In this document: positions 2,983-11,027 of the stretch, one piece after another
Position numbering within the stretch: the stretch's first letter is position 1
Layout of the letters: each line of letters opens with the position of its first letter
Source of the DNA: Candidatus Latescibacterota bacterium
GTDB taxonomy: Bacteria > Latescibacterota > UBA2968 > UBA8231
Direction of reading: 5' to 3'
Assembly: GCA_965261395.1 (NCBI GenBank)
Contig: OZ253462.1
Location: 416,001-480,000 of the forward strand
DNA length: 64,000 bases
Position numbers and translations under genes: made by a program
Notes under the pieces: generated by a model
The model's database searches: none
What the model was told of the DNA's origin: nothing
Seen by the model: the letters and a program-made list of their open reading frames with translations, nothing else

Positions 2983-5148
2983 GTGAGATTGCAAAAAAAA
3001 TGTAGGCGGGTGCTGGCGGCGTGGCTGCTACTGGCGGGGTCAGCACAGGCGGCGACCCTGAGCGGCTTTGTCACCGATGCTGACAACGGCGAAGCCCTGA
3101 GCCGCGCAGCTATCGCGGTGGAGGGGCTTCCGCTCGGGGCGGTCAGCAATCACAGCGGCTACTACGCGGTCAAACAAGTACCGGCTGGTACGCACGTGGT
3201 AAGCGCGTCGCATGCAGGCTACCAGACCCGGTGGGACACGCTGCGCTTTGGCGCGGACGAGGCCGTGCGGCTCAATTTGGCGCTAGTGTCCAAGCCGGCG
3301 GGCCTGGGCGAGCAGGTCTCGGTGGAAGCCGAACGCATCAGCCTCCGCGCCAAGCCGGTGCAGCAGTTGCCCGCCCTTGGCGAGGCCGATCTCTTGCGCA
3401 GCTTACAGCTACTGCCGGGCATCCAAGCGGTCTCGGATATCAGCAGCGGCTTGTACGTGCGCGGCGGCGGCCCCGATCAGGCGGCTATCCTCCTCGACGA
3501 CATTCCGCTGTACAATCCTTCCCACCTCTTCGGCCTCTTCTCGACCTTTAATCCAGACGCCATCAAGGAAGTCAATCTGTACAAGGGAGCCTATCCCGCT
3601 CCGTATGGCCGCACGCTCGGGGCAGTGCTCGACGTGAGCAACCGCGAGGGCAACCGACAGCGAACTAGCGGGCGTGGCGGCGTGAGTCTAATTTCAGGCC
3701 GCCTGCTCACCGAGGGACCAGTCGGCCAAGGCTCGTGGATGCTGGCCGGCCGCCGCACCTACCTAGAACCCGTGCTCAGCGCCATCCGCTCGCGCGGAGT
3801 GGATATCCCCTTGAACTATTACTTCTACGACTTCAACGGCAAAGTCAACCAGCGGTGGGGCGACGACACCTTTACAGTGAGCACGTACTGGGGCCAAGAC
3901 AACCTGCGGCTTGACCTAGAAGACGACGAAGAGTCTTTCGTCAATCTGCGCTGGGGCAACCGCGCCCTGACTGCGCGCTGGACGCGGGTGTTCTCGCCGG
4001 CCCTATTCGGGCACTTCATGGCCACCGGCTCGTCGTACGAAAGCATCATCGCGCTCCGTTTCCTCGACGCGCCCGTCCGCATCGCCAACAGCATCCGCGA
4101 CCTGTCGCTCAAAGGCGACTTGGATTACTTCGCCAACCGCAACCACACCCTTTCTTTAGGCTTGTTGGCCACCCTATTTGAGTTTCACTTTGCCCGATCT
4201 TTCAACGAGCGGACTCAGCTCGACTTGCGCCAAGAGCCGGTGCTGTTGGAAGGCTACGTGCAGGACGAGTGGCGGCTCGGGCCGACCACGCGAGTGCAGC
4301 TAGGCGGACGAGGGACGTACTTCAGCGCAGGGCACCGCTGGCATTTCGCACCCCGGCTGTCCCTGAGCCACGCCCTCAGCGACAAAGTCCGGGTCAAAGC
4401 CGGCGGCGGGGTATATCGCCAACACCTGCAACTGATCACCACCGAAGGCTTTAGCGGCGGCGATTTCTGGGTGCCGCTCGACAGCACCGTCGAGCCGGGG
4501 CGATCCTATCAGGCTGTCACCGGCGTCGAGTGGATCCCTTCGCCGCGCTACCAGCTTTCCGTGGAGGCTTATTACACGGACCTTGCCAACCTAGTGACCG
4601 TGGATACCGAAGTGGATGATGACAACGAGGCCACGCACTCGGACGCGGTATTCAAAAGCGGCGGCACGGGCTGGGCGAAGGGGTTGGAGGTCTTTTTGCA
4701 GCGGCGCACCGGCGCACTCACCGGGTGGATCGGCTACGCGCTCGGTTGGACGCGGCGGACGTTTCCCGAACTCAATGATGGCCGTCCCTTTCCCCCCAAA
4801 CACGACCGCCGCCACGACCTGTCTTTTGTCGCTTCCTACAAGGTGGGCGCATGGCGGCTCGGCGCGAGCTTGGCGTACGCCAGTGGTCAGGCGTTTACAC
4901 CGGTCTCCGAGACCCCTGCCCAGCGCAACAGCGCCCGCCTGCTGCCCTACCACCGCCTCGATGTCAGCGCTAGCCGATCGTTCGGATTGTGGGGAGCCGC
5001 CAGCGAGTTCTACGTGCAGATATTCAATGTGTACAGCCGCCGCAACGAGTGGTTTTTGCAGCTTGATTCAGTCGATCCCGAAGTCGACCCGCGCAAGATC
5101 AAACAATTGCCCATAATTCCCACGCTGGGCTTCAACTTCAATTTTTAG
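2983..5148 (+). CDS. TonB-dependent receptor (paralog 1) with N-terminal carboxypeptidase-regulatory-like domain
   Basis: Signal peptide, plug motifs LQLLPGI / YVRGG / YNPSHLFG / YKGAYPA, C-terminal Phe (GFNFNF). Confidence 0.9.
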   Translation: MRLQKKCRRVLAAWLLLAGSAQAATLSGFVTDADNGEALSRAAIAVEGLPLGAVSNHSGYYAVKQVPAGTHVVSASHAGYQTRWDTLRFGADEAVRLNLALVSKPAGLGEQVSVEAERISLRAKPVQQLPALGEADLLRSLQLLPGIQAVSDISSGLYVRGGGPDQAAILLDDIPLYNPSHLFGLFSTFNPDAIKEVNLYKGAYPAPYGRTLGAVLDVSNREGNRQRTSGRGGVSLISGRLLTEGPVGQGSWMLAGRRTYLEPVLSAIRSRGVDIPLNYYFYDFNGKVNQRWGDDTFTVSTYWGQDNLRLDLEDDEESFVNLRWGNRALTARWTRVFSPALFGHFMATGSSYESIIALRFLDAPVRIANSIRDLSLKGDLDYFANRNHTLSLGLLATLFEFHFARSFNERTQLDLRQEPVLLEGYVQDEWRLGPTTRVQLGGRGTYFSAGHRWHFAPRLSLSHALSDKVRVKAGGGVYRQHLQLITTEGFSGGDFWVPLDSTVEPGRSYQAVTGVEWIPSPRYQLSVEAYYTDLANLVTVDTEVDDDNEATHSDAVFKSGGTGWAKGLEVFLQRRTGALTGWIGYALGWTRRTFPELNDGRPFPPKHDRRHDLSFVASYKVGAWRLGASLAYASGQAFTPVSETPAQRNSARLLPYHRLDVSASRSFGLWGAASEFYVQIFNVYSRRNEWFLQLDSVDPEVDPRKIKQLPIIPTLGFNFNF

Positions 5149-5177
5149 CATCGAGATCGGCGTCTATTCGGGCCGTT

Positions 5178-5214
5178 TTGCAAGGGTACAACTCCCTCAA
5201 TATGTTTTTCTACA
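5178..5214 (+). promoter_or_regulatory. Putative ECF-sigma-type promoter of TonB receptor 2
   Basis: AAC(5190-5192)-N16-TCTA(5209-5212); conserved upstream of both paralogs. Confidence 0.4.
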
Positions 5215-5242
5215 TCCCGATTCCAAGCAGATTTGAGCAATT

Positions 5243-7510
5243 ATGACGAATATTCGCAAGACCGTGCAGCATGGGCGGAGCGGTTTACGAATGTTAGCGG
5301 CAGTGTGGCTGCTAGCGGCGGGCGCGGCACAGGCGGCGACCCTGAGCGGATTTGTGACCGACGCCGACAGCGGCGAATCCCTGCCTCTGGCCTCCATTGT
5401 CCTGACGCAGGTACAGTTGGGCGCGGCGAGCAATAGCAGCGGCTACTACGCCGTCAAAGAGGTACCAGCGGGGACGTACGAGGTGGTGATTTCGTATATA
5501 GGCTACAAAAGCTGGCGCGACACCCTAGCGTTCAGCGACCGAGATGTGCGCTTGGATGTGGCCTTGCAGGTCGAGTCGGTGGACCTAGAGGAAATTGTGA
5601 TCCAAGCCGAGCGCAGCGAAGAGCTGGAGCAGGCCACCCAGAGCAGTTTTATCGCCCTACAGGTCGAGCCGTTGCAGCAAATGCCAGCCATTGGTGAGGC
5701 CGATCTCCTCCGCAGCTTGCAACTGCTGCCGGGCATCCAGTCGGCTTCGGACATTAGCAGCGGCCTGTACGTGCGCGGCGGCGGTCCCGATCAGACGGCT
5801 ATCCTCCTCGACCACATCCCCTTGTACAATCCCTCGCACCTATTCGGCTTCTTCTCGACCTTTAATCCAGACGCCATCAAGGACGTCCAGCTATACAAAG
5901 GGGCCTACCCGGCTGCGTACGGCCGCACGCTCGGGGCGGTGCTCGACGTGAGCAACCGCGAGGGCAACCGACAGCGCTTCAGCAGCCGGGGAGGCATCAG
6001 CCTGATCGCAAGCCGTTTGCTGGCCGAAGGGCCGGTGGGGCAAGGCTCGTGGATGCTGGCCGGCCGCCGCACCTACCTAGAACCCGTGCTCAGCGCCATC
6101 CGCTCTCGCGGGGTGGACATCCCCTTGAACTATTACTTCTACGACTTCAACGGCAAAGTCAACCAGCGCTGGGGCGACGACACCTTTACGGTGAGCACGT
6201 ATTGGGGCCAGGACGATCTGCGGGTGGACATAGAAGATGAGAATGAGTCGTTCGTCGATCTGCGCTGGGGCAACCGCGCGCTGACTGCGCGCTGGACGCG
6301 GGTGTTCTCGCCGACCCTGTTCGGGCACTTCATGGCCGCTGGCTCGTCGTACGAAAGCACCCTCTTATTCAGCTTCTTCGACACGCCTTTTAGCATTGCC
6401 AACAGCATCCGCGATTGGTCGCTCAAGAGCGACTTGGATTACTTTGCCAACCGCAACCACACCCTCACCCTCGGCTTTCTCGCCACCCTGTTCGAGTTCG
6501 ACTATGACGAGTCCTTCAACCAGCAGGACCAGTCCGACTTGTACCAAAGGTCGGTGCTGGCCTCGGCCTACGTGCAGGACGAGTGGCAAGCCGGGCCGAC
6601 CACGCGGCTGCGACTCGGGGGACGGGGCACCTATTTCAGCGTTGCGGATCGCCTGCATTTCACGCCGCGAATGTCCCTGAGCCACGCCCTCAGCGACAAA
6701 ATTCGCGTCAAGGCCGCCGCGGGCATGTACCGCCAGTACTTGCAATTGATCACCACCGAAGCCTTTAGCGGCGGCGATTTCTGGGTGCCGCTGGACAGCA
6801 GCGTCGAGCCGGGGCGCTCTTATCAGGGGGTGATAGGCACCGAGTGGGACCCGTCGCGGCGCTACCAGCTCTCCGTGGAGGCCTACTACACCGACTTGGC
6901 CAATCTGGTGGTGCTAGACAACGCGGTGGCCGTCGATAGCGAAAGCACGCGCTCGGATGACATATTCAAAAGCGGGGGTAGCGGCTGGGCCAGCGGAGTC
7001 GAGGTCTTTTTGCAGCGGCGCACTGGCGCACTTACCGGGTGGGTGGGCTATACCCTGGGCTGGACGCGGCGCACCTTTCCCGAACTGAACGGCGGGCTCA
7101 CCTTTCCCCCCAAGTACGACCGCCGCCACGACCTATCTTTCGTGTTCTCGTACCAGGCGGGGAAATGGCGCTTAGGCTCCAATCTCGTGTACGCCACCGG
7201 ACAGGCCTTCACCCCGGCCTCGGCCCGCTATTCGCTGCGCGAGCCAACCACTGGATCGGTGGAAGACTACGTGCTACCGGCCGAGCGCAACAGCGCCCGC
7301 CTACTGCCCTACCACCGCCTTGATGCCAGCGCCAGCCGCGAGTTTGGGCTGTGGGGCCTCGACGTCGAGTTCTACTTGCAAATTTTCAATCTCTACAGCC
7401 GGCGCAACGAGTGGTTCGTGCAGTTCGACACGAAGAATCCCGAGACCGAGCCGGAAGTGGTCAAGCAATTGCCCATCGTGCCGACGCTGGGCTTCAACTT
7501 TTCGTTTTAA
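5243..7510 (+). CDS. TonB-dependent receptor (paralog 2)
   Basis: Same architecture (ISYIGY, YVRGG, C-terminal GFNFSF); exact start may be downstream (MLAAVW, 5291). Confidence 0.9.
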   Translation: MTNIRKTVQHGRSGLRMLAAVWLLAAGAAQAATLSGFVTDADSGESLPLASIVLTQVQLGAASNSSGYYAVKEVPAGTYEVVISYIGYKSWRDTLAFSDRDVRLDVALQVESVDLEEIVIQAERSEELEQATQSSFIALQVEPLQQMPAIGEADLLRSLQLLPGIQSASDISSGLYVRGGGPDQTAILLDHIPLYNPSHLFGFFSTFNPDAIKDVQLYKGAYPAAYGRTLGAVLDVSNREGNRQRFSSRGGISLIASRLLAEGPVGQGSWMLAGRRTYLEPVLSAIRSRGVDIPLNYYFYDFNGKVNQRWGDDTFTVSTYWGQDDLRVDIEDENESFVDLRWGNRALTARWTRVFSPTLFGHFMAAGSSYESTLLFSFFDTPFSIANSIRDWSLKSDLDYFANRNHTLTLGFLATLFEFDYDESFNQQDQSDLYQRSVLASAYVQDEWQAGPTTRLRLGGRGTYFSVADRLHFTPRMSLSHALSDKIRVKAAAGMYRQYLQLITTEAFSGGDFWVPLDSSVEPGRSYQGVIGTEWDPSRRYQLSVEAYYTDLANLVVLDNAVAVDSESTRSDDIFKSGGSGWASGVEVFLQRRTGALTGWVGYTLGWTRRTFPELNGGLTFPPKYDRRHDLSFVFSYQAGKWRLGSNLVYATGQAFTPASARYSLREPTTGSVEDYVLPAERNSARLLPYHRLDASASREFGLWGLDVEFYLQIFNLYSRRNEWFVQFDTKNPETEPEVVKQLPIVPTLGFNFSF

Positions 7511-7528
7511 GGAGGAAGTCGTGCGCTA
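7484..7528 (+). repeat. 45-bp direct repeat, left copy (receptor 3' end + RBS + GTGCGCTA)
   Basis: acgctgggcttcaacttttcgttttaaggaggaagtcgtgcgcta; 42/45 identical to 10070-10114. Confidence 0.9.
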
Positions 7529-7588
7529 TTAAGAGTTGGACGGTGAGGCACAGGGAAGGTATGAGACCCGGTTCTATATAGTTTCTAC

Positions 7589-8235
7589 TCACTTGCGTGC
7601 AATACGGCACGACTTCCAGTTCTTCGACCAATGTTCATCGGACTGGACATGGCCCGCCCGAACGCTCTTGCAGACATTGTACCTGAATTCCTCGACCGGA
7701 AATGCTCGTGCCAACCGTATCACCACCCCTTCCCGTTCACCTCCCAATACGGATGGCTCCGTGTGCGCCTTGCTTACGAAGTCCTGAATTTCGTCAACGG
7801 AGCGGAACAAGCCCTCGAACAGAATGGGGGCTACCGGAATGTCGTGTTCTTGGGCATAATCCACCATCGTCCGGAACGACGAAAAGGTACCATCCCCAAA
7901 GCGAAGCGCGAAGGCATAAAAGGTTTCGTTCTCGGCGACGGGTTCATATTCGATGCTGTGTACTCCGTAGATATCTTCACCATAAAGAAACACGTCCGGC
8001 TCCATCACTTTCCAAGCATGGTGTTTCTTGACCATCGCCATCCACTTGCCATTCGAAGGAGCGGAGACACTACGTGCATAAACTTCACCCTGGTGAAGGA
8101 GTGTATTGCCTCCATCGATCTTCTCGGTTACGACAATCGGTAATCCTATGAACCTCATCGGGTCGGCAAGAGCTTCGCCGTCTCGGACAGCCGCTGGCGA
8201 GTCTGGCCAGTAGGAGTTTTTGGATATTTGAGCAT
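7589..8235 (-). pseudogene. ATP-dependent RNA ligase family protein with a 1-nt frameshift near codon 8
   Basis: Motif I VVTEKIDGGN, LYGED, FYAF, REGVVIR, KSVR..HVQSDEHW. The family N-terminus MLKYPKTP (ATG 8235) is out of frame with YWPDSP: ATG CTC AAA TAT CCA AAA ACT CCT ACT GGC. Confidence 0.7.
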
Positions 8236-8331
8236 ATGACCTGACGTCGAAAATTGGCACTCGAGATCCGCGTGCGTGTTTCTTCCGTTCGCCGCTATGG
8301 CAACGTTGGTGTCTACGACAAAGGATGTCAT
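8155..8331 (-). pseudogene. Truncated PIN-like protein N-terminus, fused in frame to the RNA ligase start
   Basis: ATG overlaps the ATPase stop (TGATG); MTSFVVDTNVAIAANGRNTHADLECQ then FSTSGH-MLKYPKTP...*; 58 aa. Confidence 0.65.
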
Positions 8332-9689
8332 CACGAGGCTTTGATCCGTCTTTCCAGGGACGCTGTGCTAATCGCAGCAATCTCGCCCATTTCATCTCCA
8401 AAAAATTTATCCGGCCAGTTCTCTATTTCACCCCACATATTCAGACTGAGATCGTCGCATTCGGCTACGCCGTGTTTCGTATGAACGAAGTAGAGCTTCA
8501 AGTCTGACGATGACATTTCTTCTTCGGCTACGCGACGCTGGAAGCGCCTTAATAAGTGCTCACTGTGGCTTTCCACGACAATCTGGACCCGGCGCGTCTT
8601 GGCCACTGCGAGTATCACGTCCGCCAATCCACTTTGAACGGACGGATGCAAATGAATTTCCGGCTGCTCCATCAGAACGATAGAGCCATCCGGCACATAG
8701 TACAGAAGTACCAGAACAGGCAAGATTTGGGAGACGCCGAAGCCTACATCCGTTAGCATCGTCTCCGGGCCTTTGTCTCTTTGAACGCAGGCTTGGTACA
8801 GGTTGGACCTAGGCGCGATTTCTTTAACCTCGAAGGAATCAATCAGGCCTAGTTCTCTCAACCAATGGGCAATCATTTCTTGGAATGGCTTGTAGTGCTT
8901 GCGTGGTGCAAGGTTTCGCATCTCGCCTCGTGCGGTAGCCGCCAGAATGGCATCGATAGTGCGTTCGCCGCGTGGTCCCACATCATCGGGGCTAGATCCC
9001 GCCCACCTATACTCGCGCTGCGGATGCTCTCGGAGAGGGCCAAGATAGAAGATCCTATCCATCAGCGCCTCGTACTGAGCTTCGAATTCACTTAGAAAAT
9101 TGGCGTCTTGAAAGTAGGTACGGGCTTGGTCAGGGAAGAGATGTGTCTTAACCGGGCCGGGCAGAGCCCAACCCCGTCCTCTATTCCGAGTGAACTCGAA
9201 CGGGTGTTCACCGCATGATATAAGATCGAACTCATTGGGTTTGTCTACTTTTGGTTCGATGGCGAAAACGGTGTTGTCAAATTTATATTTCATATGATGC
9301 GCCGATAGATCTGAGCCTTTCAGTCCAACCCGGCATTCCATTTGTAGACTAGTTCCCTCTAAGAGCACCTTATTGCGAGGGCCCTTGGGGTCATAGACTT
9401 TATAAGAATTTGGAAGTGTCCAATCTAGGGTCCAGTTGATGTTCGCTTTCTGGTCGCCTTGATGCACAATGGCTTGGTAGGTTCCCAGATTTACCAGTTC
9501 GTTCGGTCCGCCGAAGTCCAGCACGGTACCCCGGTCTGTCGCATTCTTCGTCTGCTTGAGCAAAAGTAGAAACTGAAGCACACTGCTCTTGCCTGAACTA
9601 TTCGTGCCGAAAAGACCAGTGACCTTCCCTAAGGATATCTGTAACTCGCACCATGCCTTGAAGTTAGTGATATTAAGAAATTCCAACAT
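8331..9689 (-). CDS. ABC-type ATPase (AAA_15/AAA_21) with DUF3696-like C-terminus
   Basis: ITNFKAW, Walker A GTNSSGKSS, YLGPLR, DVGFGVSQILPV, MEQPEIHLHP, VESHSEH, WPDKFF. Confidence 0.88.
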   Translation of the reverse strand: MLEFLNITNFKAWCELQISLGKVTGLFGTNSSGKSSVLQFLLLLKQTKNATDRGTVLDFGGPNELVNLGTYQAIVHQGDQKANINWTLDWTLPNSYKVYDPKGPRNKVLLEGTSLQMECRVGLKGSDLSAHHMKYKFDNTVFAIEPKVDKPNEFDLISCGEHPFEFTRNRGRGWALPGPVKTHLFPDQARTYFQDANFLSEFEAQYEALMDRIFYLGPLREHPQREYRWAGSSPDDVGPRGERTIDAILAATARGEMRNLAPRKHYKPFQEMIAHWLRELGLIDSFEVKEIAPRSNLYQACVQRDKGPETMLTDVGFGVSQILPVLVLLYYVPDGSIVLMEQPEIHLHPSVQSGLADVILAVAKTRRVQIVVESHSEHLLRRFQRRVAEEEMSSSDLKLYFVHTKHGVAECDDLSLNMWGEIENWPDKFFGDEMGEIAAISTASLERRIKAS

Positions 9690-10069
9690 TGGTTACTTGC
9701 CTTCCTTGGAGTGCGGTCGCCACCTCGACGCTTCTCGTGAGGTCTCGTTCCGAAACCGCGCCGACCGACCATCTCCTTCCGGTGAAATAGCTGGATTCGC
9801 TTGGAGGCAGCCTTAATGGTCTCTTTCATGGCTCCACCATAGTTTTGGTCGCGTGGTGTAAGACAAAGTACAAGGTTCAGCAAACCCTCGCCAGCATCAC
9901 GTCCTCTTGTAGTAGCCTCTCGATACGGACCTGGAGCAGCGATCGTATATATTTGTATATAGTGTTCGATATACTGTACTTTTGCTTTATGCCAAGCAAG
10001 ACTTTGGCCTATCTAGGCAGCCGTTTTCGACTTGGGCCAAACAGTATGAATCCCAAGGTGCGCCTAAAC

Positions 10070-10114
10070 ACGCTGGGTTTCAATTTTTCGTTTTAAGGAG
10101 AAAGTCGTGCGCTA
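10070..10114 (+). repeat. 45-bp direct repeat, right copy
   Basis: acgctgggtttcaatttttcgttttaaggagaaagtcgtgcgcta; encodes an orphan TLGFNFSF* and supplies the RBS/start of the lipoprotein. Confidence 0.9.
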
Positions 10115-11027
10115 CATTTTTATCGTCCTATGCCTAACGGCCTGCGCTGCCGAGCGCCAGCCGGGCGATCTCTTCGGCTCAGTAAAAAAAGAAAGCGAGG
10201 TGGTGGTGGACGGGGTGCTGCTGGTCGATCAGCTCCTACCCGAATTGTTCGTGCGGCGCACCCTGCCTCTCGACCAAACCTATCGCAGGGAAGCGGCGGT
10301 AGTAACTGACGCCGAGGTGCGCATTTTCCAAGGGGACCAAGTCTTTGATTACGCACCCGACCCGACTACGCCCGGCCGCTATCTGCCACCGCCAGAGGCC
10401 CCCCAAGTGGAAGCCCTGACCGAGTACCGACTGGAAGTGGACGTAGAGGGAAAGAAAGTGCGTGCCAGCACGACCACGCCAGAGCGGCTGCGGCTGCGGC
10501 AGGCGGTGCTGGTTGACGAAGACACCCAAGAAATCGTGCGGACTCTCAAGTCATTTGCCGAGGTTGGGGACGAGGTTTACACGGCACCGGAGAATCAGCT
10601 TACTCACCTAGAGGGCCTGATCGAACTCCACTTGGAAAAGGCAGGGGAGGCGTACCAAGCAGCACTCTTCGCTTTGGAAGAGAACGCGCAATTGCTCGAC
10701 GAGGATTTCCCGGACTTGTTCGACGAGGACTTGGATGCATTGCGAGCCAACCAATCGCCGCCCTTCGCCGCCAGCGACGGAATCGTGCGCTGGCCGTGGT
10801 TCGCCGTGGTTTATACCGGGCGTTCGCTAATAAAGGTGTACGCACTCGACCACAACTGGTTCGAGTACGCCCGCTCCAGCCCCGACCTGCAGGAACAGGG
10901 AGGATCTGCAGGAGGGCTGGCCGGCGAAAATTTCGAGCGGCCATTCTTTCAGGTGGAGGGAGGCATCGGGCTGTTCGGCTCGGCGTCGGTGGATTCGGTG
11001 GGGTTTGTCGTCCTGCCGCGACCGTAG
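10107..11027 (+). CDS. Lipoprotein partner of TonB receptor (DUF4249-like)
   Basis: Lipobox LTAC, VVVDGVL, C-terminal VEGGIGLFGS; AAGGAG RBS. Confidence 0.75.
   Translation: MRYIFIVLCLTACAAERQPGDLFGSVKKESEVVVDGVLLVDQLLPELFVRRTLPLDQTYRREAAVVTDAEVRIFQGDQVFDYAPDPTTPGRYLPPPEAPQVEALTEYRLEVDVEGKKVRASTTTPERLRLRQAVLVDEDTQEIVRTLKSFAEVGDEVYTAPENQLTHLEGLIELHLEKAGEAYQAALFALEENAQLLDEDFPDLFDEDLDALRANQSPPFAASDGIVRWPWFAVVYTGRSLIKVYALDHNWFEYARSSPDLQEQGGSAGGLAGENFERPFFQVEGGIGLFGSASVDSVGFVVLPRP

Follow-up and report, generated by a model that had tools for sequence, protein, structure and literature searches.

In a stretch of 64,000 nucleotides from a Candidatus Latescibacterota bacterium (contig OZ253462.1, positions 416,001 to 480,000; hereafter, the window), an islet of 2541 bp (7529..10069) separates a TonB-dependent receptor gene from a DUF4249 lipoprotein gene and sits between two copies of the junction of these two genes. 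Its guanine plus cytosine (GC) content is 0.47-0.55 (vs. 0.59-0.65 in the flanks), and its genes, which match the anti-phage system HEC-03 and an RNA ligase family, are all found on the minus strand. Both neighbors, i.e., the receptor (5243..7510, plus strand; an open reading frame (ORF) with the Pfam domains CarboxypepD_reg and Plug) and the lipoprotein (10107..11027, plus strand; ORF and Pfam match), are intact, and the receptor orthologues of congeners share 86-93% identity.

The two junction copies (7484..7528 and 10070..10114, plus strand; start-to-start spacing 2586) agree at 42 of 45 nucleotides (93%) in a repeat search of the window. The left copy comprises the last 27 bases of the receptor gene (stop codon at 7508-7510), a ribosome-binding site and 8 bases of a dead lipoprotein start that arose by the duplication, GTG CGC TAT TAA (7521..7532, plus strand, read directly from the sequence); the right copy begins with a dead receptor end, followed by the working ribosome-binding site and start of the lipoprotein gene. 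As the duplicated stretch spans the receptor stop together with the ribosome-binding site and start of the lipoprotein, both host genes are whole. Two of the three mismatches (GGC/GGT and AAC/AAT) are each synonymous within TLGFNFSF and the third (GGAGG/GGAGA) falls in the ribosome-binding spacer. A 30-nt core of the repeat has exactly two matches in the window, a number reached by none of 100 dinucleotide shuffles, and the only further match in the 6.55-Mb genome is the 88% similar end of the paralogous upstream TonB receptor gene. Homology breaks off sharply at the outer edges of both copies, and local alignment of the islet ends with the receptor 3' and lipoprotein 5' ends revealed no hidden extension (observed scores reached by 262/300, 111/300, and 113/300 shuffles). 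No sigma-70-like sites were found in the islet region, and its three terminator-like sites compare with 2.6 expected. The original prediction, made from the sequence alone, had read the 42/45 repeat, its synonymous third-position mismatches, the dead MRY start on the left, the real lipoprotein start on the right and the integrity of both host genes; the repeat search, the shuffles and direct reading bear all of this out. The receptor itself belongs to a tandem of paralogous TonB-dependent receptor genes (2983-5148 and 5243-7510, ~78% DNA identity), of which the first ends in TLGFNFNF and only the second is followed by a DUF4249 lipoprotein gene.

Both joints were compared with Logan contigs of four sequencing runs (X15, X17, X1, and X19; at most three samples and three studies) over 6900-10700; runs with small shares, from sponge and marine metagenomes, were left aside. 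Contigs of all four runs cover both joints without differences (e.g., 7462-8186 and 9739-10108 in X15, 0 differences; 9684-10106 in X1), and the duplicated junction is therefore not a mis-assembly. In run X17, one contig (depth 49.6 of 152.1) carries an additional G behind 7529, as the empty-site allele of congener G022 reads (GTGCGCTATG...); this contig may stem from a relative in the same sample whose site is empty.

We searched 31 genomes of the genus, among them the source genome (G000); 26 carry the lipoprotein gene and five gave no match. Twenty of these 26 have a single, empty junction in which the receptor stop precedes the lipoprotein start by 10-12 bases, and owing to these single-copy alleles the islet is recognized as a true insertion. 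The HEC-03 islet occupies the junction in two genomes, G000 and G001 (the latter with an intact PIN gene), and a hicB-like gene pair in two others, G007 and G043, as an insert of ~0.5 kb (L127, 494-1071, and L133, 740-1360, respectively) that consists of a UPF0150/HicB-like gene (3.3e-25 in G007) and a 76-residue ORF without a Pfam family. Longer spacers are present in G045 and G046, that of G045 holding a small inverted-repeat element. One junction thus occurs in four states within one genus, i.e., empty, with the hicB-like pair, with the HEC-03 islet, and with both. Empty-site alleles and other cargo at the same site were what the original prediction proposed to look for in relatives, and both were found. 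The small elements just mentioned (~120-190 bp, terminal inverted repeats with TAAGTACCCGAC-like ends) were seen in G043 (L133, ~1376-1500) and in the pre-lipoprotein spacer of G045 (L151, reverse strand); they have an apparent target duplication of 8-10 bp, one of them interrupts the signal-peptide region of the lipoprotein in G043, and they are probably a family of miniature inverted-repeat transposable elements (MITEs) of the genus.

Islet DNA was detected in three of the 31 genomes, i.e., G000, G001, and G019. In the window it encodes an intact ABC-type ATPase of 452 residues (8331..9689, minus strand; Pfam AAA_15, AAA_21, and DUF3696) that matches the PADLOC model HEC-03B (PDLC04148) at 3e-214 over residues 1-451 and is 89% identical to the G001 protein. 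According to the preprint of Payne et al. (10.1101/2024.01.29.577857), HEC-03 is composed of an ABC ATPase and a PIN protein and is anti-phage in E. coli, where both genes are required and an apparent toxicity of expression was noted. The relatives carry a PIN-like gene of 157-163 residues between the ATPase and ligase genes, with a Pfam PIN match of 5.5e-4 (below the curated cut-off), and the 163-residue protein of G001 matches PADLOC HEC-03A (1.3e-66). In the window only the first 27 codons of this gene persist (8254..8334, minus strand): the ORF at 8155-8334 starts MMTSFVVDTNVAIAANGRNTHADLECQ, the same as the 163-residue G001 and 157-residue G019 proteins, and 12 bp between the aligned blocks correspond to 432 bp in G001, i.e., a deletion of ~420 bp between ~8240 and 8252. 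As the PIN gene is reduced to a stump and both HEC-03 genes are needed (Payne et al.), the HEC-03 copy of this genome is probably no longer a working defence system. The locus resembles HEC-03 in the match of the ATPase and of its G001 neighbor, in gene order and in the 4-base overlap of the two genes; it differs in the truncated PIN gene of G000 (its partner being intact in G001 and G019) and in the RNA ligase as a third gene. With respect to naming, the ATPase is “A” in the preprint, but the PADLOC model that it matches is named “B”.

This third gene encodes an intact RNA ligase of 215 residues (7589..8235, minus strand; PF09414, 1e-17, and alignment to the G001 and G019 ligases). In the assembled sequence, a change of frame separates its first eight codons (MLKYPKTP) from the remainder, which could have been taken for decay. 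We ruled this out, as the G that the assembly lacks after 8212 (in a GGG run) is present at full depth in all four read sets (X15, X17, X1, and X19), a homopolymer assembly error; other such errors mimicking frameshifts may exist in the window. An 84-residue ORF of the islet has no family match in Pfam or PADLOC. The right end (9690..10069), upstream of the ATPase gene, is non-coding and AT-rich; its part at 9977-10046 is common to G001 only, and it closes with a 24-bp patch (10046-10069) where G001 keeps 14 bp of the receptor 3' end. We also considered 7531-7588 as a hicB remnant and rejected it, since the intact hicB genes of G007 and G043 identify these bases as the islet's own left end, the hicB of G001 being truncated.

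The repeats differ in extent between the occupied genomes (45 bp in G000, ~58 bp in G001, 46 bp in G007, ~95 bp in G043). In G000, they run from ACGCTGGG to GTGCGCTA, the right copy starting at ACGCTGGG. Those of G001 run from TCAAGCA to GGAGGA, where the left copy ends and the hicB-like gene begins; the right copy continues past the lipoprotein start. The repeat of G007 is perfect over its 46 bp (CCCATCG to GGAGAAA), and the right copy of G043 starts ~45 bp further upstream and is more diverged. The right-hand joint is common to G000 and G001 to the base (...TTTTCGACTTGGG, then YCAARCAGT), which argues for a single origin of the two islets as judged from these sequences; upstream of the 24-bp patch that precedes the right copy in G000 stands CCAAACAGT, homologous to TCAAGCAGT of G001. 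At the left, homologous islet sequence starts AAGA(G/T), and the joints are different, GTGCGCTATT meeting AAGAG in G000, and a truncated hicB plus 8 unrelated bases, TACCATAG, meeting AAGAT in G001. Around the left copy, the window (7459-7530) aligns with the right copy of G001 over 72 bp at 91.7% identity, and the original duplication around the HEC-03 islet would thus have measured at least ~70 bp (7460-7530), now 45 bp. Two orders of events fit these data. The HEC-03 islet may have come first, the hicB pair being nested later into its left copy with a duplication of its own, after which a deletion would have given rise to G001, and in G007 and G043 the HEC-03 islet would have been lost as repeat copies recombined with each other. 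In the other order, the hicB pair came first; in the lineage of G001 its distal part would have given way to the HEC-03 islet, which would later have entered G000 by one homologous and one illegitimate joint.

The two islet-bearing genomes are not each other's closest relatives. G000 is nearest to G022 (91-95% identity in the flanks) and G001 groups with G012 (93%), both of which have an empty site; G000 and G001 share 86-88.5%, and G007 is an outlier (77-87%). Between G000 and G001, the synonymous divergence (dS) amounts to 0.37 for the receptor and 0.39 for the lipoprotein, compared with 0.28 for the ATPase and 0.23 for the ligase; in terms of the proportion of synonymous differences (pS), islet and flank genes are ~3 standard errors apart, by a rough binomial estimate from four genes, of which the foreign ones may differ in rate. 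Given that the closest relatives are empty and that the islet dS lies below that of the flanks, these comparisons lead us to favour a transfer of the islet between species, its conserved flanks serving for recombination, over a purely vertical descent that would demand many losses. Precise losses through the repeats may also have occurred, and no mark of them would be left.

Beyond this junction, relatives of the ATPase were sought by a scan of one genome per species, which returned 275, and the best 80 loci (L026-L105) were kept. They derive from many phyla, mostly from metagenome-assembled genomes. A PIN-like gene adjoins the ATPase in every one of the 80 kept loci, and a PF09414 RNA ligase is the third gene in 57 (in 54 over at least 180 residues), i.e., the three-gene form (ATPase, PIN, and RNA ligase) is common. 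The word “ligase” was not found in the main text of the HEC-03 preprint (10.1101/2024.01.29.577857), and a literature search for DUF3696 with “RNA ligase” gave nothing relevant among the top matches listed. From the gene order, a ligase adjoining a PIN RNase suggests the repair of self-inflicted RNA cuts. Seven of the 80 kept loci (L035, L054, L056, L059, L060, L066, and L067) combine a shortened PIN gene with a full-length ATPase away from contig ends, and loss of the PIN nuclease gene seems recurrent.

The cassette of G019 (contig C156, L017) is found at another locus, ~280 bp upstream of a tRNA-Thr(UGU) gene and not at the 3' end of this gene. It is a mosaic, with a ligase 92% identical to that of the window and an ATPase of only 79% identity; the contig stops 15 bp beyond the ligase gene and shows poor synteny with G000. 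In G000 (contig C1, 5014800-5015918), the distance from a 274-residue gene to tRNA-Thr is 1.1 kb vs. 23 bp in G019, which makes this a variable spot. G001 has, between its hicB-like and ligase genes (L016, ~5150-5270), a segment of ~110 bp bounded by 15-bp inverted repeats that is absent from the window, and the G019 contig breaks exactly at this segment, as if it were repeated in the G019 genome. In Massilia (L088 and L095; 6504-6896 and 9702-10302), a two-gene HEC-03 cassette stands between direct repeats of 357 and 383 bp, which by eye only appear to consist of the 3' end of rpoC and a terminator, with limits that differ between the two species. In other organisms, eight of 68 full-length HEC-03 loci have flanking repeats of at least 30 bp (sought up to 3.5 kb upstream and up to 4.5 kb downstream), and some of these cassettes are tightly bracketed (77 bp in L083 and 67 bp in L084).

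Comparable islets were sought in G000 by self-comparison in 16-kb pieces (direct repeats of 28-500 bp, at least 85% identical, 0.7-9 kb apart). This yielded 46 isolated repeat pairs, 15 of which were annotated; the junction repeat itself was masked by the neighboring paralogue. None of the 45 inner ORFs of the 15 annotated islets matched tyrosine or serine recombinase families, and two matched transposase families. Seven of the 15 carry defence or toxin-antitoxin cargo, i.e., Septu PtuA/PtuB, an AbiLi-like ATPase, GmrSD, BrnT, a type II restriction enzyme with a C5 methylase and a PIN/PrlF pair, a TIR/ThsB-like protein with an SMC-like ATPase, and an RmuC protein matching a DRT-type PADLOC model. 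Nine low-GC islets, all on contig C1 and outside the window, are flanked by isolated direct repeats of 69-387 bp and have no recombinase match (1260002-1266929, 1650940-1654931, 3085387-3087703, 3425265-3426463, 3668857-3671034, 4512270-4514453, 5108443-5112836, 5155337-5162276, and 5346701-5350460); their contents include, besides the cargo just listed, a 1761-residue AAA_22 protein. A generality of repeat-bracketed islets is suggested by these numbers, not proven.

No integrase, transposase or phage gene was found among the islet ORFs with Pfam and PADLOC, and the claim of the original prediction that no integrase lies inside holds, the two long ORFs being the ATPase and the RNA ligase and the 84-residue one familyless. 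Tyrosine and serine recombinases were likewise absent from the islet and from the inserts of G001, G007, and G043, the wider window not having been scanned for them. Neither insertion sequence, transposon nor MITE describes the islet: the repeat search detected no terminal inverted repeats pairing its two ends, and the duplication measures at least 45 bp. The earlier view that the repeat is no target duplication of the insertion-sequence type and no tRNA site is supported. An inverted repeat (7514-7530 and 7601-7617, 15/17) was examined as a recombination site and dismissed, being at chance level for 5 kb (an estimate) and not conserved in G001. We compared the four joints of 20 repeat-bracketed inserts (the junction islet, seven other HEC-03 loci, and 12 other islets of G000) and found no common end motif; the repeats (45-387 bp) are unrelated. 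Independent insertions at the junction do not share a crossover core either, as the limits differ among G000, G001, G007, and G043. Nothing points, then, to the trans-acting recombinase, here a site-specific one, that had been put forward for this islet, the limits being variable and the repeats of the G000 islets (50-387 bp) unrelated to each other. The suggested excisability fared no better: neither a joint skipping 2586 bp nor a circle joint was listed in the contigs of the four runs, which is a weak result in that contigs hide rare forms. Nor did any evidence emerge for the switch of lipoprotein expression that the original prediction had considered.

Insertion with long target duplication was reportedly described for restriction-modification (RM) genes by Nobusato et al. 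in 2000 (Gene 259:99), a class that the original prediction had not recognized. A survey of RM units with such duplications (Furuta, Abe and Kobayashi 2010, NAR 38:2428, PMC2853133) lists repeats of >30 bp up to ~420 bp, the lack of any other mobile element and a foreign GC content as its features; a translation start or stop frequently falls within the repeats, the target genes being left intact, as in an H. influenzae example whose 46-bp repeat overlaps 15 bp of a gene end, and on mechanism the authors state nothing beyond a suggested role of DNA breakage (PMC2853133). In the literature from 2014 on, a full-text phrase search returned, by title or abstract, no extension to non-RM defence systems. 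Our islet fits the structural class: its repeats exceed 30 bp (45 bp at 42/45, or 72 bp when the left copy is set against the right copy of G001) and align to a single copy at the empty site of 20 of the 26 congeners, and the insert is shorter than 20 kb, with no other mobile-element gene. It further shares with the RM units the small defence insert of foreign GC content devoid of integrase and transposase, the repeat spanning stop and start codons between two intact neighbors, and the position inside an operon-like gene pair. It departs from them, and from the survey's criterion of RM gene homologues, in its cargo of an ABC ATPase, a PIN stump and an RNA ligase, to which the idea of DNA breakage by a restriction enzyme has no obvious counterpart; in addition, the same junction holds a toxin-antitoxin-like pair in other species, and the repeat limits were eroded differently per species.

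Thus, we consider it likely that an HEC-03-type cassette, acquired horizontally, was inserted without a recombinase of its own into the gap between receptor and lipoprotein, i.e., an insertion with long target duplication. An anti-phage cassette (ABC ATPase and PIN nuclease) with an RNA ligase as its third gene would have been placed into the 12-base gap of the TonB-receptor/lipoprotein operon by illegitimate (non-site-specific) joining, with a target stretch of originally at least ~70 bp being duplicated on either side. The islet would then have passed from species to species within the genus as conserved flanks recombined, and the repeats, a by-product, would permit its precise removal through ordinary homologous recombination, as opposed to a programmed excision. 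Several points weigh against this explanation. “Illegitimate joining” is a label and no demonstrated process. Both insertion orders fit, and if the hicB pair came first, the repeat would not be the HEC-03 islet's own target duplication. Two cargos at the same 70-95-bp junction, in four of 26 genomes, are unlikely under purely random insertion and hint at a site preference, at nesting into a duplicated “safe” stretch or at a homology-guided spread. Flanking repeats are not clearly enriched around HEC-03 loci (the 8/68 above vs. 24/300 random places in G000 and 3/68 shifted controls, in a crude test), and a search for clean empty sites gave none at two further islets of G000 or at the Massilia locus: the Septu (L110) and RM (L112) sites are variable hot spots without a clean single-copy allele, and the left flank of L095 does not adjoin the repeated segment in 40 other genomes of the genus Massilia. 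Finally, the PIN deletion is without confirmation by reads, the listed contigs not showing 8187-8290; a contig of run X19 leaves the window sequence at 8252 and continues like an intact PIN gene.

Some of these observations invite other explanations, the foremost being that the islet reached G000 as a fragment of congener DNA that carried a downstream junction copy. Its right end would have recombined by homology in the junction and lipoprotein region, and an illegitimate joint would have attached its left end a few bases into the lipoprotein start of the recipient, so that the overlap between both joints left a 45-bp repeat that is not a primary target duplication and that in G001 may stem from an earlier insertion of the hicB pair. 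The same right but different left joints of G000 and G001, their placement in different clades, each with closer empty relatives, and the lower dS of the islet genes all agree with such an import, as do the G in GGAGGA of the left copy and the A in GGAGAA of the right copy in both genomes and a left copy that ends in CTATT, like the alleles of G001, G006, G010, and G021, and not in CTACATT, the form of this genome. However, only 3-5 bases in the repeat are informative, dS comes from two islet and two flank genes (foreign low-GC genes may evolve off the host rate), and the lipoprotein 5' end right of the repeat resembles that of G004 and G002, not G001, with no donor tract beyond the repeat. 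Homology-facilitated illegitimate recombination, known from naturally transformable bacteria, would likewise combine one anchor with one illegitimate joint and could account for the common right joint, the different left joints and the spread among congeners; its described outcome is an insertion with loss of recipient DNA and no duplication, unlike that of G000. The import from a congener covers the spread within the genus but neither the first arrival of the islet nor the unrelated repeats at other islets; we regard it as a distinct, though minor, possibility. The original prediction held that the cassette carries its own allele of the junction; the common right joint, the lower islet dS and the CTATT end are compatible with this without showing it as such. 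It is unlikely, in our view, that small defence and toxin-antitoxin cassettes are delivered to gene junctions by a dedicated route of insertion that duplicates 45-390 bp of target, with the receptor/lipoprotein junction as a preferred site used independently by both cargos and the 15 other islets of G000 as products of the same machinery; the host or another element might provide such a route in trans, or the cargo might do so through nuclease and ligase activities of its own.

Repeats of 45-70 bp at gene 3' ends are typical of the att sites made by integrases, and integrase-less, att-flanked remnants (cis-mobilisable elements) are known from the integrative and conjugative elements of Streptococcus. 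Integrase-made att repeats are also listed as an alternative class by Furuta 2010 (PMC2853133). The islet could then be such a remnant, still excisable, with its repeats as attL and attR and its integrase lost or acting in trans, and a cargo-only islet between direct repeats of this length at a protein gene end, together with two different cargos at one junction, looks the part. Nevertheless, neither the islet in G000 and G001 nor the 0.5-kb hicB insert of G007 and G043 contains an integrase, the junction holds no cognate integrase-bearing element in the 26 lipoprotein-bearing congeners, the limits differ in every occupied genome and the repeats at other G000 islets are unrelated; with the G019 cassette lying away from a tRNA 3' end and no 2586-bp skip in the (weakly informative) contigs, we hold this to be improbable. 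A purely vertical history, i.e., one ancient insertion at the root of the genus followed by repeated precise loss and no horizontal spread, is still harder to accept. Recombination between repeats of 45-95 bp does restore a perfect empty site, losses would be scarless, and hicB is about as similar between G001 and G007 (85% identity) as the flanks are (77-84%), but the 20 empty genomes are interleaved with the four occupied ones and would require many independent losses, the islet dS falls below the flank dS, and the repeat copies within a genome share states (TAA in both of G000, TGA in both of G001), which would require gene conversion. That the junction is a chimeric join or a duplication made by the assembler, an outcome by which the original prediction would have fallen, is next to inconceivable: the assembly is not flawless, with at least one error in a homopolymer (a G dropped after 8212), but all four runs support both joints, and G001, as an independent genome, is arranged in the same way.

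Long target duplication, an integrase-free mode of insertion for defence genes, has been documented mainly for RM genes and has no accepted mechanism. On its own, the locus is a further example of a described phenomenon, with a cassette that appears to be decaying in G000. To this phenomenon it adds a non-RM cargo (HEC-03 with an RNA ligase), a junction in four states among 31 genomes and an islet-rich genome; it is worth noting that two cargos use one junction in a nested manner and how many similar islets G000 contains. The set of junctions could help to work out which event preceded which and to devise a test for the model of homology-anchored joining.

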